49,389 bases of DNA. Source: a virus (taxonomy: Duplodnaviria; Heunggongvirae; Uroviricota; Caudoviricetes). Location: the IMG/VR virus record IMGVR_UViG_2851966386_000003, positions 1-49,389 of that record; one strand, given 5' to 3'. Made by a program: the position numbers and the translations under genes. The notes under the pieces are model-generated. The model saw nothing but the letters and a program-made list of their open reading frames with translations, searched no databases and was not told where the DNA came from. Every line of letters begins with the position of its first letter. Position 1 is the stretch's first letter. Below, in pieces: positions 13,697 to 20,544 of the stretch.

Positions 13697-13834
13697 ATGT
13701 ATTTCTGCAGTGTGAAGTGCGCTAAAGACAAGCAGGTTGCGCGTTGTGGTAATGCGGTTCCTCCGCCTTTTGCTGAGGCGCTGGTGAGTGCTAATTTTCC
13801 GGAGATGTGCCTGAAAAAAGACATTGCAGCATGA
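13697..13834 (+). CDS. Small Cys-containing ORF (45 aa) between two terminators
   Basis: Manual translation MYFCSVKCAKDKQVARCGNAVPPPFAEALVSANFPEMCLKKDIAA; stop abuts terminator; no clear SD. Confidence 0.25.
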   Translation: MYFCSVKCAKDKQVARCGNAVPPPFAEALVSANFPEMCLKKDIAA

Positions 13835-13835
13835 T

Positions 13836-13862
13836 AAAACCCGCTTCGGCGGGTTTTTTATT
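13836..13862 (+). terminator. Rho-independent terminator
   Basis: aaacccgc ttcg gcgggttt followed by T-run. Confidence 0.65.
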
Positions 13863-13943
13863 ATGGAAAAACATCAATCTAAACATAAGCATGGTGTTGG
13901 CAAAAAGTGCTGCAGAGGGGTTGAACATTTCATGCAACCGGTA

Positions 13944-13963
13944 TACTGTTTATTTATACAGTA
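13944..13963. promoter_or_regulatory. LexA box (SOS operator) upstream of dinI homologue
   Basis: TACTGTTTATTTATACAGTA = CTGT-N8-ACAG palindrome, 20 bp upstream of dinI-like ATG. Confidence 0.65.
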
Positions 13964-13982
13964 TCTGTGTGAGGTGCTAACC

Positions 13983-14216
13983 ATGAAAGTTGAAGTCACA
14001 ATTGATAAACATAAAAAACTCCCTGATGGTGCCATACCTGCGCTTGAGCAAGAATTGTTGCGCCGCTTGTCCCAGTCTTATGATGACTGCAAATTAACCA
14101 TTCGATGCACAAGCAACGATGGCCTTAGCGTTTTGGGCGGCGCTGATGGCGATAAAAAGCGCGTTGAGCAAATTCTGCAAGAGACATGGGAAAGCGCAGA
14201 CGACTGGTTTTATTAG
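13983..14216 (+). CDS. dinI: DinI-family protein
   Basis: 77-aa product matches E. coli DinI along its length (MKVEVTIDK...LPDGAIPALEQELLRR...EQILQETWESADDWF); GAGGTG SD; real start is internal Met of ORF 13824..14216. Confidence 0.8.
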   Translation: MKVEVTIDKHKKLPDGAIPALEQELLRRLSQSYDDCKLTIRCTSNDGLSVLGGADGDKKRVEQILQETWESADDWFY

Positions 14217-14546: not shown

Positions 14547-14629
14547 CTCATAACAGCTAGCTACATCATACTTGTAGTGCTGGTCTGAACAACCAGCCAC
14601 CTGACAGTAATGCGCCACCGGAGAACGTG

Positions 14630-15226
14630 ATGGCGCAGCTTCACTTAATAAAACAATCTCAAGGTATCCTGATCCCCGCGACGCCGGAGACCAGTGATTT
14701 TCTGCAATCAAAATGCAAGCTCGGATCCGTTCTGGAAGCCGATTATAAGCTTGTCCGCAATCCGGCGTTTCACCGCCGTTACTTTGCTTTACTCAATCTC
14801 GGCTTTGAATATTGGGAACCTACCGGCGGGGCGATTTCGTCTAACGAGCGCAGGCTTATCACAGGTTACGCCAAATACCTTGCTGCATATGGCGGGAGTG
14901 AATCGGCGTTGCTTGATGCCGCCGGGCAATATCTCGACCGGATAGCTGAGAAGCGATCCGGCTATATCAGTATTTGCAAATCCTTCGATGCTTACCGGGC
15001 GTGGGTCATCGTTGAAGCCGGCCACTATGACGCCATACAGCTACCGGACGGCACGCTGAAAAAACACCCTCGCAGCATTTCTTTTGCAAGCATGGACGAA
15101 TGCGAGTTCCAAGAACTGTACAAAGCATCGCTGGATGTTCTCTGGCGGTGGATCCTCTCTCGTTCATTCAACAGCCTGCAGGAAGCTGAGAACGCCGCCA
15201 ACCAGCTTTTAAGCTTCGCGGGGTGA
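14630..15226 (+). CDS. Nin-region phage protein of unknown function
   Basis: ORF 14627..15226; ATG 14630 after GGAGAA SD; nin-region position. Confidence 0.5.
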   Translation: MAQLHLIKQSQGILIPATPETSDFLQSKCKLGSVLEADYKLVRNPAFHRRYFALLNLGFEYWEPTGGAISSNERRLITGYAKYLAAYGGSESALLDAAGQYLDRIAEKRSGYISICKSFDAYRAWVIVEAGHYDAIQLPDGTLKKHPRSISFASMDECEFQELYKASLDVLWRWILSRSFNSLQEAENAANQLLSFAG

Positions 15227-15432
15227 TGCCGATGAAACACTCATGGTTTCACCATCTCGAATGCACAACGCAGCAGGCCGACGAATTGGTAGCGAGATAT
15301 CGTCAGCGGGGCGTAAAGGTCGAACGAAGCTTAAACCCTGACTTTATGACATGGACCGTCAGCGTGCAGCTGGTGGAGGACACAAATCCGCCTCGGCCAG
15401 ATTCTCGCTGGCGTAACAGGATGTGGGAGTGA
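15223..15432 (+). CDS. Hypothetical phage protein
   Basis: 69-aa ORF overlapping previous stop; start ambiguous (15223/15226/15232). Confidence 0.4.
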   Translation: MMPMKHSWFHHLECTTQQADELVARYRQRGVKVERSLNPDFMTWTVSVQLVEDTNPPRPDSRWRNRMWE

Positions 15433-15434
15433 GT

Positions 15435-15731
15435 ATGGCGAATCTTCGCAAAGCGGCCCGAGGCCGCGAATGCACAGTACGTATTCCTGGGTACTGCAAT
15501 GGCAATCCCGAAACCAGTGTGCTGGCGCATTACCGTCTGGCGGGAACGTGCGGCACAGGATGCAAGCCTGACGATACTCAGGGCGCTATTGCCTGCAGTG
15601 CTTGCCACGATCTCATTGATGGCAGAAAGAGAACCACCGATTACACCCGCGACGAACTGCGCCTGATGCATGCCGAAGGCGTGCTCAGAACTTTGGCTAT
15701 ATGGAAACAAGAGGGGTTACTGAAAGCATGA
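15435..15731 (+). CDS. YbcO-like Cys-rich putative nuclease
   Basis: Product resembles, from memory, DLP12 YbcO family (ANLRKAARGRECTVRIPGYCNGNPETSVLAH...ACSACHDLIDG); directly upstream of Q-like gene. Confidence 0.55.
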   Translation: MANLRKAARGRECTVRIPGYCNGNPETSVLAHYRLAGTCGTGCKPDDTQGAIACSACHDLIDGRKRTTDYTRDELRLMHAEGVLRTLAIWKQEGLLKA

Positions 15732-16543
15732 AACTCGAAGCATCCTTAAAACATTTCAGCCCTCAGGGTATGCACATCAGCGACGATGTGAGAAGCACAT
15801 CACCTGATCGCCTCAACGGTACGGATGTTATGGCTGGTATTGGGGTGACAAGCAGCAGGGCAAGGTTCGGACTGGCAGCGTTCTTTGGAAAGACTGGCAT
15901 CAGCAAGACTGATGAGCAGTTGGCCGTCCAGGCGCTAGCACGGTATGCGATTGAAACCGCACCGAAGAACGTACGCAAAACCGCGGGTAAAGAGCTGGGG
16001 CACTGCTGCCTGATTTTGGCGAAGTTTGCTTTTGCGGAGTATTCCCGTTCAGCTGAAACAACGGGAGCCTGCAGGGTATGTAATGGCACCGGACAGATTG
16101 AAACCACTACCACAGAACGCAAAGTTTCTAATCCGTGGGGCAAAGCACCATATTGGGCTAAAAAATCTCGTGCTGTCTGTCCTTCCGACTGGGATAAGTG
16201 GACTGAAGTCACAGCCGCCTTCAGCGCTAAGTGTGAAGCCTGTGACGGTAAGGGGAAAATAAATGCTCGCTGTCGCTGTGGTGGTTCTGGCCGGGTTCTG
16301 GACCGCAAAGCGACAAAAGAGCAGGGAGCACCAGTATATAAAATCTGTGAACGCTGTTCGGGGAATGGCTTTTCAACGATGCCGTCTACTGCTGCTTATA
16401 AAGCGATTCTGACGCTTATCCCAGACCTGCACATCAGAACATGGACACGCAACTGGAAACCTTTCTGCGATGCGCTGGTGGACCTGTGCTGGAAGGAAGA
16501 GGAGAGGGCAGATAAAGAGTTTCAACGAGCAACAGCTGATTGA
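15728..16543 (+). CDS. Putative late antiterminator Q, with four CxxCxGxG zinc-finger repeats
   Basis: Position upstream of pR'/tR'-like elements and lysis genes; repeats CRVCNGTGQ, CEACDGKGK, CRCGGSGR, CERCSGNGF; ATGA-coupled start. Confidence 0.55.
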   Translation: MKLEASLKHFSPQGMHISDDVRSTSPDRLNGTDVMAGIGVTSSRARFGLAAFFGKTGISKTDEQLAVQALARYAIETAPKNVRKTAGKELGHCCLILAKFAFAEYSRSAETTGACRVCNGTGQIETTTTERKVSNPWGKAPYWAKKSRAVCPSDWDKWTEVTAAFSAKCEACDGKGKINARCRCGGSGRVLDRKATKEQGAPVYKICERCSGNGFSTMPSTAAYKAILTLIPDLHIRTWTRNWKPFCDALVDLCWKEEERADKEFQRATAD

Positions 16544-16583
16544 GTAAATGGGCACATTATTTTGCATTTTAAGCGCACAATGC

Positions 16584-16613
16584 TTGATTTTGTCCGAAGT
16601 TGTCGTGTATATT
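16584..16613 (+). promoter_or_regulatory. Candidate late promoter (pR'-like)
   Basis: TTGATT -N18- TATATT just downstream of Q-like gene and ~45 nt upstream of a terminator. Confidence 0.45.
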
Positions 16614-16654
16614 TTAAATCGTGGAATAAAACGCCTGAACGAAAACATTCATAT

Positions 16655-16688
16655 AAACCCTGCTACTGCAGGGTTTTGTGTTTTTGAA
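16655..16688 (+). terminator. Rho-independent terminator (tR'-like)
   Basis: aaaccctgc tact gcagggttt followed by tgtgttttt. Confidence 0.65.
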
Positions 16689-16795
16689 AACAAATGCCTG
16701 AAATCGGTTATAAAGTGTGATCTGAATCAAAATGCCATGCGTCAAACTTAAGGAATATTAAGGAACTGTAAATATTCTTTATAAGTGATGGTCTT

Positions 16796-17422
16796 ATGGC
16801 GTTAAAAGATATTTTTGTGCGAACCGAACCTCACAGACGGCATTATGGTGTTGCATTGTTTATCGGGCTTATTTCTGGGGTGGTTTCAGCATTTGTTAAA
16901 TGGGGTGCAGAAGTACCATTACCACCGCGTAGTCCTGTCGATATGTTTACCAGTGCCTGTGGACCAGAGTCATTAATTCGAGCTGCCGGGCAGATTGATT
17001 GTTCCAGAAACTTCCTTAACCCTCCTTATATTTTTCTGCGTGATTGGTTAGGGCTGGCCGATCCAAATGCGGCTGTCTATACCTTTGCCGGACATGTGTT
17101 TAACTGGGTAGGTGTAACGCATATCATATTCTCCATCGTGTTTGCGGTTGGGTATTGTGTAGTTGCCGAGGTGTTTCCAAAAATCAAGCTGTGGCAGGGT
17201 TTACTTGCAGGTGCACTCGCACAACTGTTTGTCCATATGATTTCGTTTCCGCTTATGGGCCTAACCCCACCGTTGATTGAGCTTCCATGGTATGAAAACG
17301 TTTCTGAAATATTTGGTCACCTGGTGTGGTTCTGGTCAATTGAGATAATTCGCCGGGATCTGAGAAACAGAATTACGCACGAACCGGATGCTGAAGTTTC
17401 TCTGAATTCAGCATTCAGATAA
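16796..17422 (+). CDS. yagU: YagU-family inner membrane protein (DUF1440)
   Basis: 208-aa product near-identical over long stretches to E. coli YagU (from memory). Confidence 0.85.
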
Positions 17423-17468: not shown

Positions 17469-17548
17469 GCCTGTGATTAGTCGCTCTTCGATAGCAATGT
17501 ATGCAGAGTGTATTGACGCTAGCTATGTTTACAGCATAACGTATTGAT

Positions 17549-17657
17549 GTGGTGAATCCCCCTATGCGGAGGGGCGACCAGTCAGTTACAGAAACCTGTA
17601 AATGCAGCGCGGCCATGCCGACTGGGGCATGCTCACCGGGAGGCACCCGGCACCACA
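17549..17657 (+). repeat. Copy 1 of ~108-nt structured repeat element (candidate ncRNA or recombination site)
   Basis: gtggtgaatccccctatgcggaggggcgaccagtc...gactggggca...ccgggaggcacccggcaccaca; shares conserved 5' and 3' arms with copy at 20245..20351. Confidence 0.6.
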
Positions 17658-17816
17658 CTGCCACATAACATATTTAAGATTTATGGAAGGTTTACTTCTG
17701 CGGTTGCCCTTCTATGTTTATAGAACGTAACGGCAAAAGTGAATGCTTCCTGGTAAATCGGTAGCTCGGACTATTAGGAGTGGCTTCGTTTCGTTACTAC
17801 CTAGAATGCCTACTTT

Positions 17817-17844
17817 CTGCCCGCCTTCAGGCGGGCTTTTTTAC
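17817..17844 (+). terminator. Rho-independent terminator
   Basis: gcccgcc ttca ggcgggc followed by tttttt. Confidence 0.7.
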
Positions 17845-18020
17845 GCCATCAATAGGGCGCTTCAAGAGAAAAGGTAAATATCAGTTGAAGGCTGCGCTTT
17901 GCGTGGCCTTTCTTATTTCAGGCTCACAGAAATCATCATCGATACAGCGCGTTGTTAAATCAGCCCGATGGGCCTGACCCCTTTATTCACACAGCACCCC
18001 GTTAACCCGGAGGTGAACCT

Positions 18021-18332
18021 ATGGCAAAGCATATGCAAGACAAAGAGAGCATGGCCGGAATCACCTGGCTGGCTCTGCTGATCATTGCTGGTTGGGGCGG
18101 CCTTGTCCGATTCCTGATGGATGTGAAGCAGGGCAAAGCAAAATGGAGCTGGATAAATGCCTTTGCGCAGATAGTGGTCTCTGCTTTCACTGGCGTCATT
18201 GGTGGGCTAATCAGCATTGAAAGTGGGCTGAGTATTTACATGATACTGGCCACTGCCGGTGTCAGTGGTGCTATGGGATCCGTAGCGCTTACGTATTTCT
18301 GGGAACGAATTACCGGAGTGAAAGCACAATGA
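18021..18332 (+). CDS. Holin
   Basis: 103-aa product with TM segments and charged C-terminus, possible dual start (MAKHM); GGAGGTG SD; directly upstream of endolysin with ATGA overlap. Confidence 0.7.
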   Translation: MAKHMQDKESMAGITWLALLIIAGWGGLVRFLMDVKQGKAKWSWINAFAQIVVSAFTGVIGGLISIESGLSIYMILATAGVSGAMGSVALTYFWERITGVKAQ

Positions 18333-18868
18333 CAGCAGACCAGATTATTGAAGGCATCCTGGGAAAAGAAGGTGGGTATGTCGATCACCCTTCTGACAAA
18401 GGCGGACCAACCCGCTGGGGCATCACGCAGACCACAGCTCGAGCACATGGTTACACCGGTGATATGAGAAACCTGCCCAGGGAAACAGCAAAGCAAATTC
18501 TGCTCAGCGATTACTGGACCGGCCCCCGATTCGATCAGGTGGCAAGTTTATCTACGTTACTGGCAGATGAGCTTTGCGACACTGGTGTGAACATGGGGCC
18601 AAATATTGCCAGTAAGTTTTTCCAGCGCTGGCTCACTGCCCTTAACATGCGCGGGAAGTTGTATCCCGATCTGATCCCGGATGGAGCCATTGGCCCCCGA
18701 ACCATCACCGCGCTTAAGGGATATCTTTCTGCCCGCGGGAAAGAGGGGGAACAGGTTCTGTTGCGTGCGCTGAACTGCAGCCAGGGTGCCAGATACCTCG
18801 AACTGGCGGAGGGCCGCGAAGCCAACGAGGATTTTCTCTACGGCTGGGTTAAGGAGCGTGTCCTGTGA
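18329..18868 (+). CDS. Endolysin, GH108 N-acetylmuramidase with peptidoglycan-binding domain
   Basis: N-terminal GH108 signature (EGGYVDHPSDKGGPTRWGIT). Confidence 0.85.
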   Translation: MTADQIIEGILGKEGGYVDHPSDKGGPTRWGITQTTARAHGYTGDMRNLPRETAKQILLSDYWTGPRFDQVASLSTLLADELCDTGVNMGPNIASKFFQRWLTALNMRGKLYPDLIPDGAIGPRTITALKGYLSARGKEGEQVLLRALNCSQGARYLELAEGREANEDFLYGWVKERVL

Positions 18869-19991: not shown

Positions 19992-20244
19992 GTGAGTTAA
20001 CCCTCCTAGGGACCATGGATATTATGGTTCGCATGAGGGGTAGTGTGGGATTTAAGTGAGAAAATTCCTAACTGGAATTTTTTCTTAATTTGAAACCTGA
20101 TATGAAACTTTATTGTTGGTTTTGTAATGATTCAATATGAAATGATTAATTATTGTCTGCCAGGATATACAGTTTTCCGAAAGAGGTGTTTTTACTGGTT
20201 ACATCGGATTGACTATGCACTTATCGCATAGCTAATGTAGATGC

Positions 20245-20351
20245 GTGGTGAATCCCCCTGTGCGGTGGGGCGACCAGCCAGGTTTTCTCTTTGAGCACAC
20301 ACGCAGGTCTGTTGGCTGGGGCAGACTTACCGGGAGGCACCCGGCACCACA
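20245..20351 (+). repeat. Copy 2 of ~108-nt structured repeat element
   Basis: gtggtgaatccccctgtgcggtggggcgaccagcc...ggctggggca...ccgggaggcacccggcaccaca; possible hairpin terminator at 20371-20397. Confidence 0.6.
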
Positions 20352-20544
20352 ACATACTGCATAACCCCATAAAGGCCTTCCATTACGGTAGGCCTTTTCT
20401 CTTCTGGTTGTATCTAATACTGTGGGCAGGTCAGCTGGCTTATGCAGGACAGATTATTTTTTCTTATTGAATGCCGCTTCTGGTGTGCTTATATTCTACC
20501 TAAAAATGGGTAGGTGTGTTGTGATTAGAAAATGCTATGCAAGA

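Follow-up and report, generated by a model that had tools for sequence, protein, structure and literature searches.

Late antiterminators of lambdoid phages include members of the Q-lambda (PF03589), Q21 (PF06530) and Q82 (PF06323) families (PMC9388147, PMC7171158). The Q21 and Q82 families have the same regulatory role and genome position in these phages (PMC9388147), but they are analogues of Q-lambda and not homologues. A zinc ribbon made of CxxCxGxG knuckles is an established part of lambda Q, where it forms an arm (residues 114-152; zinc ligands C118, C121, C144 and C147) that contacts positions 11-13 of the Q-binding element (QBE) and sigma region 4, while the helix-turn-helix (HTH) of the C-terminal body reads QBE positions 1-4 (PMC9388147). 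Around the first knuckle, residues 110-112, 117 and 122-126 of lambda Q touch the beta' zinc-binding domain of RNA polymerase (RNAP), and the N-terminal segment refolds with NusA into a nozzle at the RNA exit channel (PMC9388147). Here we describe a Q gene at positions 15728..16543 (+ strand) of a 49,389-nucleotide Caudoviricetes sequence, the IMG/VR virus record IMGVR_UViG_2851966386_000003 (positions 1 to 49,389), which is referred to as a whole as the window. The protein it encodes is a full-length Q-lambda homologue and not a DnaJ relative. With a probability of about 0.9, its product serves as the late-gene antiterminator Q in a lambdoid prophage of the Klebsiella type, with antitermination activity expected from homology with lambda Q.

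Among described phages, the Q protein of phi80 (gene 17 product, 269 amino acids) shares the overall architecture of window Q. It has four knuckles in equivalent places, and both proteins carry the insert signature KVSxPWGKxPYWxKxSRAVxPSDW. The GenBank annotation of phi80 describes this protein as the late antiterminator, with a Q site just after the -35 element of the late promoter and a terminator about 50 nt downstream. The two proteins are nevertheless only 37% identical, and the Q sites (TCGCGGA in phi80, the candidate TCCGAA in the window) differ, as do the promoter sequences. Four knuckles, with the same spacing between knuckles 2 and 3 and between knuckles 3 and 4, are also found in Q of Shigella phage SfV (250 amino acids) and in other mid-length PF03589 members, in which the hairpin that joins knuckles 1 and 2 is shorter than in window Q.

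Profile and structure searches agree on the family to which the window protein belongs. Pfam PF03589 ("Antitermination protein Q") matches it at 165.6 bits (E = 2.8e-49; cut-off 26.7), and PHROG 127 ("anti-termination protein Q-like") matches over its full length (7.7e-95). The Q21 (PF06530) and Q82 (PF06323) profiles show no match at E <= 1 in the Pfam search. Pfam also gives weak matches to DUF7895, TMEM106_N, RNase_E_G_Thio and Anti-TRAP (E 0.02-0.3, all under their cut-offs), which we put down to noise from the Cys/Gly motifs. Lambda Q provides the only real sequence matches among solved structures (7UBM_Q, E = 4e-43; also 4MO1 and 7UBJ). In the alignment with 7UBM_Q, residues 1-124 of window Q correspond to residues 1-127 of lambda Q (88 bits) and residues 180-265 to residues 116-202 (71 bits). 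The protein has the testable defining features of the Q-lambda family and lacks those of DnaJ, Q21 and Q82.

The gene consists of 271 codons plus a stop. Its ATG at 15728 overlaps the TGA of an upstream open reading frame (ORF) of the YbcO family (ATGA). An in-frame ATG at 15701 would give a 280-amino-acid version, which was rejected because homologues, lambda Q included, begin at the Met equivalent to 15728 (MKLE, MNLE or MRLE in the alignments). Antisense ORFs at 15763-16308 and 16373-16648 were treated as not being genes. A preliminary description of the sequence had proposed a Q-like antiterminator with a zinc-finger module in the position of the late antiterminator, and the alignments and the structural match reported below now back this proposal. 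The position also holds, with the nin-region genes DUF1367 and YbcO upstream and a promoter, a terminator, a holin and a GH108 endolysin downstream. Profile comparison with the Q families and the DnaJ Cys-rich model places the protein in Q-lambda and leaves the DnaJ model (PF00684) below threshold. In its details, the same description needs small adjustments: the length is 271 rather than 272 amino acids, and the terminator it placed at 16655-16688 was recovered by our scan at 16655-16686.

An AlphaFold2 model of window Q, built on an alignment of 76 sequences, has a predicted local distance difference test score of 89.9 and a predicted template-modelling (TM) score of 0.75. The model includes a helical body and a C-terminal HTH. 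Lambda Q accounts for each of the top eight Foldseek matches in the PDB, led by 7UBN_Q, the NusA-engaged loading complex (E = 1.7e-14; TM 0.83, normalised to lambda Q); 7UBM_Q gives a TM(target) of 0.87 with a root-mean-square deviation of 2.2. Homology between window Q and lambda Q spans their full length, and about 34% of the structurally aligned residues are identical. They share the conserved N-terminal 60 residues, a four-helix body, the C-terminal HTH and a zinc ribbon formed by two CxxCxGxG knuckles 25-26 residues apart, and in both genomes the gene is followed by a promoter, a terminator and the late genes. Residues 1-60 (15728..15907, +) are more strongly conserved than any other part when Q of lambda, phi80 and SfV is compared (TDVMA, G39); columns M1, L3, E4, T32-A36 and G39 are invariant in the alignment with these three proteins. 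By analogy with lambda Q, this segment would form the nozzle here too. The C-terminal body with its HTH comprises residues 216-271 (16373..16540, +; helices 220-228 and 236-269), as indicated by the AlphaFold2 model and by comparison of relatives. The two proteins differ in that lambda Q has 207 amino acids and one zinc ribbon, whereas window Q has 271 amino acids with about 55 extra residues at the first knuckle. In addition, knuckle 3 is CxC in window Q and CxxC in lambda Q, and the promoter spacer sequences are different.

The extra length of window Q lies in its putative zinc-binding region. Motif scanning and alignment identify knuckle 1 (C115 RVC NGTG; 16070-16093, +) and knuckle 2 (C169 EAC DGKG; 16232-16255, +), both absent from lambda Q. 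Knuckle 3 (C182 R C184 GGSG; 16271-16291, +) and knuckle 4 (C207 ERC SGNG; 16346-16369, +) align with lambda Q C118/C121 and C144/C147, respectively. The preliminary description had spoken of four DnaJ-type CxxCxGxG repeats. All four motifs are present and three are canonical, but the third is CxCxGxG, at a position where relatives carry either CxC or CxxC; "DnaJ-type" is apt for the resemblance of the motifs but not for family membership, as detailed below. None of 200,000 composition-preserving shuffles of the protein contained three or more motifs (32 contained two), so the four-motif observation is not due to chance. All eight knuckle cysteines are retained in every long-form homologue aligned, and C182, C184, C207 and C210, the equivalents of lambda C118, C121, C144 and C147, are at least 90% conserved in the 76 sequences.

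Relative to lambda Q, the insert of about 55 residues at the first knuckle is a self-contained module composed of knuckle 1, a hairpin of 12+12 residues with a 22-residue tip, and knuckle 2. The AlphaFold2 secondary structure predicts that residues 123-168 (16094..16231, +) form a long beta-hairpin (strands 123-134 and 157-168; tip 135-156), which constitutes an extra arm, and short strands at 112-114 and 177-179 flank the insert in the model. Between knuckles 3 and 4, residues 189-206 (16292..16345, +) are modelled as a strand-helix-strand unit equivalent to the lambda Q arm. Among representatives of the Q family, the spacing between knuckles 2 and 3 is always 13 residues, and that between knuckles 3 and 4 is 25-26 residues in most long forms (23-27 overall). 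Knuckles 1 and 2 lie anywhere from 14 to 60 residues apart, and short lambda-like forms lack these two knuckles together. The extra arm is the most variable segment of Q among relatives (24-83% identity). A BLASTP comparison of residues 105-180 with residues 176-226, made for signs of an internal duplication of the lambda-like arm, aligns the knuckles only (E = 0.03) and thus detects no such duplication.

The insert most likely binds a second zinc ion, which would give two tandem zinc ribbons formed by knuckles 1+2 and 3+4. Three things favour this arrangement: knuckles 1 and 2 are lost jointly, lambda Q sets a precedent for a 3+4 site, and the model shows the hairpin. A nested arrangement, with Zn-I bound by knuckles 1+4 and Zn-II by knuckles 2+3, concerns the extra module only and appears unlikely. 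Such a nested topology is used by the DnaJ Cys-rich domain, and the constant distance of 13 residues from knuckle 2 to knuckle 3 would fit a compact zinc site. Against it, lambda Q builds its zinc site from the counterparts of knuckles 3 and 4, likewise 25-26 residues apart, knuckles 1 and 2 are always lost as a pair, and the model places one of these two at either end of a single long beta-hairpin, with the short strands 112-114 and 177-179 on the outside. The insert sits exactly where lambda Q has its beta'-contacting surface, which makes contact with RNAP a reasonable guess for the role of the extra arm.

Downstream of the gene lies a late promoter of the sigma-70 type that resembles PR' (16584..16613, +), with a -35 element TTGATT (16584-16589), an 18-nt spacer and a -10 element TATATT (16608-16613). 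A footprint was compiled from the 200 nt following the Q stop codon in 80 viral contigs and three phages, which yielded 59 distinct sequences. Promoter and terminator are conserved across these sequences while the flanks diverge. The near-invariant block comprises the TTG of the -35 element and the following TTTG, AA at 16597-16598, TGTC at 16601-16604, GTGTA, the -10 element as TAnnnT, and AATC(G/A)TGG. A hairpin with a T-tract always follows 45-60 nt beyond the block, and its stem sequences differ, with compensatory changes. In the window, this is an intrinsic terminator of the tR' kind (16655..16686, +), found by a terminator scan and by folding; its stem (16655-16676) has 9 bp with a 4-nt loop and is followed by the T-rich tail TGTGTTTTTG. 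The leader folds at -22.4 kcal/mol (z = -4.7).

The spacer contains a candidate QBE (16593..16604, +), composed of the hexamer TCCGAA (16593-16598) and the near-invariant TGTC (16601-16604). It is placed just after the -35 element, like the annotated gp17 (Q) site of phi80. Relatives carry one of two spacer versions, TCCGAA or CATAAA. Ten protein positions separate the two groups perfectly, and every one of them falls within residues 221-266, in the HTH region. They span helix 220-228 and the beginning of helix 236-269, as in H(I/V)RTWT versus HQSSWS. CATAAA-type relatives are only 45-46% identical to window Q in residues 216-271, yet nine of ten are 77-94% identical in residues 1-215, the exception being L006, in which the extra-arm segment alone drops, to 24%. 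A mosaic exchange is visible in the relatives L065-L076 and L006, in which the HTH module of Q and the promoter hexamer have been swapped together. TCCGAA is a likely Q-binding element, judging by its covariation with the HTH module. The way in which lambda Q reads its QBE leads us to propose that the HTH would contact TCCGAA and the lambda-like arm TGTC.

The extra arm, by comparison, probably does not set promoter specificity, since relatives with a diverged arm keep the promoter block. In ENT39118 the arm is only 27% identical and the TCCGAA hexamer is kept. In ST512phi13.5, whose arm is 24% identical, the hexamer is CATAAA and the HTH module is different as well, but the promoter block is otherwise preserved. 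Just beyond the promoter, the near-invariant AATC(G/A)TGG (16617..16624, +) of the footprint is tentatively assigned as a sigma-dependent pause element; AATCGT-GG resembles AACGAT-GGG of lambda and AACGCT-GGG of phi80.

By homology with lambda Q (PMC9388147), the following mechanism can be proposed for this locus. RNAP starting from the TTGATT-18-TATATT promoter (16584-16613) would pause near the start. Q would bind the site in the promoter spacer, with its C-terminal HTH reading TCCGAA (16593-16598) and the lambda-like zinc-ribbon arm of knuckles 3 and 4 reaching TGTC about one helical turn downstream. Q would then contact the paused polymerase and, with NusA, its N-terminal 60 residues would refold into the nozzle at the RNA exit channel. 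The polymerase modified in this way would pass both terminators (16655-16686 and 17819-17845) and so transcribe the DUF1440 moron, the lysis genes and the virion genes.

Several points weigh against parts of this reading. Physical linkage may account in part for the way HTH and hexamer covary, because the 3' end of the Q gene is about 50 bp from the promoter and a single recombination block could carry both. The near-invariant AATCGTGG lies 3 nt after the -10 element, compared with 6-7 nt in lambda and phi80, and this shorter spacing makes the pause-element assignment uncertain. The pairing of the zinc knuckles, whether 1+2 with 3+4 or nested as 1+4 with 2+3, is drawn from predicted secondary structure only. 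The difficulty of placing the pause element with confidence would also fit a Q homologue that does not act, or no longer acts, as a late antiterminator, either as a relic in a defective prophage or as a DNA-binding regulator without antitermination. This is very improbable given that the ORF is intact, with conserved zinc ligands and N-terminal nozzle segment, that gene, promoter and terminator are kept as a unit in 540 viral contigs and in many prophages, and that a complete set of lysis and virion genes lies downstream in the window.

That the protein is instead a DnaJ-like zinc-finger chaperone or holdase can be dismissed for practical purposes: the four CxxCxGxG-like motifs, weak matches to PF00684 (24.9 bits, E = 2.5e-5) and TIGR02349 and the "molecular chaperone" annotation of one orthologue speak for it, but the PF00684 score lies below the 32.7 cut-off, the Pfam search finds no J domain (PF00226) at E <= 1, the protein sequence contains no HPD tripeptide, a DnaJ C-terminal domain is absent, the best DnaJA2 structure match in Foldseek has E = 5.3 (probability 0.20, TM 0.12) against 1e-14 for lambda Q, and the remainder of the protein can be aligned with lambda Q from one end to the other. 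Precomputed PF00684 matches are listed for many close homologues and denote borderline motif similarity only, and the DnaJA2 match amounts to no similarity of fold. The Cys-rich domain of DnaJ/Hsp40 likewise has four CxxCxGxG-type knuckles, which in DnaJ bind two zinc ions. Window Q lacks the J domain, the G/F region and the C-terminal domains of DnaJ; apart from its knuckles it is a Q-lambda body, and its knuckle spacing and probable topology also differ.

The annotation in question belongs to the Klebsiella prophage ST13-OXA48phi12.4, whose orthologue (96% identical; L007 3001-3816; MK422450.1 26789-27604) is labelled "molecular chaperone". This is evidently a misannotation that arose from the DnaJ-like Cys motifs. 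ST13-OXA48phi12.4 (96.6% DNA identity) and ST405-OXA48phi1.3, also a Klebsiella prophage, are the nearest deposited phages, and the latter labels its orthologue antitermination protein Q. The chaperone label should be corrected in the deposited genome, of which there is at least one.

Relatives of window Q were sampled as the best 120 clusters at 90% identity and as full-length representatives at 50% identity. Proteins of the best 120 clusters are 237-280 amino acids long (nearly all 255-280), and 116 of the 120 have four motifs. Their NCBI name is "antitermination protein", and they come from Klebsiella, Salmonella, Enterobacter, Citrobacter and E. coli. Most of the 50%-identity representatives keep all eight cysteines, while about a quarter are short and lambda-like. 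Judged by these sequences, a Q with four motifs is nothing unusual but the long form commonly met in the Q-lambda family. Many close homologues (P0012, P0017 and others) also carry a precomputed match to Pfam PF27659. The window protein is of a kind already known and catalogued, since relatives with 94-95% identity are annotated as antitermination proteins, one IMG/VR contig carries a Q of identical sequence, and the four-knuckle architecture of window Q is that of phi80 Q. Searches of the available literature library found no description of a second zinc ribbon or of a four-knuckle Q, and a PDB search found no long-form Q among the structures.

The locus has little significance beyond correct annotation, the gene being the likely late-gene switch of a prophage. 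The remaining point of interest, a modest one, is what the extra zinc arm does. Most Q-lambda members carry a second predicted zinc ribbon that is missing from the solved lambda Q structures, and the structural view of Q loading is for this reason limited to the short form, which is in the minority. It is conceivable, although the odds are somewhat against it, that the two-ribbon long form is the majority and possibly ancestral architecture of the family, with lambda Q, its only solved member, as a reduced exception. The arm could then add or alter a contact with RNAP, NusA or upstream DNA, leading to a loading geometry unlike that in the lambda Q structures. The natural swap of HTH module and hexamer provides a ready-made specificity pair for the study of recognition by long-form Q.

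The genes around Q are arranged as in the Q-dependent cassette described for lambdoid phages (PMC9388147). Upstream, the nin region holds a DinI-family gene (13824-14216, +; PF06183, 1.7e-25) and, by Pfam, a DUF1367 gene (14627-15226) and the YbcO-family gene (15423-15731). As listed, the DinI ORF starts at a TTG and is much extended at its N terminus, which may be an artefact of ORF calling. Within the late unit lies a moron gene for a DUF1440 inner-membrane protein (16796..17422, +; PF07274, 9.4e-48). It lies between the terminator under putative Q control and the holin, which is a typical moron position, and is also found in ST13-OXA48phi12.4. A second strong terminator, identified by the terminator scan (17819..17845, +), follows this gene and precedes the lysis genes, and late transcription would have to pass it as well. 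Pfam assigns these to a LydA-type holin (18021-18332, +; PF16083) and an endolysin with GH108 and PG_binding_3 domains (18329-18868, +). By analogy with the lambdoid cassette, holin and endolysin (18021..18868) would be the first late genes to depend on read-through. The virion genes follow downstream of the lysis genes.

A + strand ORF at 16548-16751 spans the late promoter, the leader and the terminator. Its counterpart in a related phage (L007 3863-4024) is annotated as a hypothetical protein, but the ORF is unlikely to be a gene. Two diverged copies of the STnc100 small RNA (RF02076) bracket the lysis cassette at 17518-17721 (+) and 20217-20405 (+), with scores of 71.9 and 81.5 bits against a gathering score of 47. 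They have a common core of about 110 nt with long identical runs, such as GTGGTGAATCCCCCT and CCGGGAGGCACCCGGCACCACA, and the first copy is located between the DUF1440 gene and the terminator at 17819.

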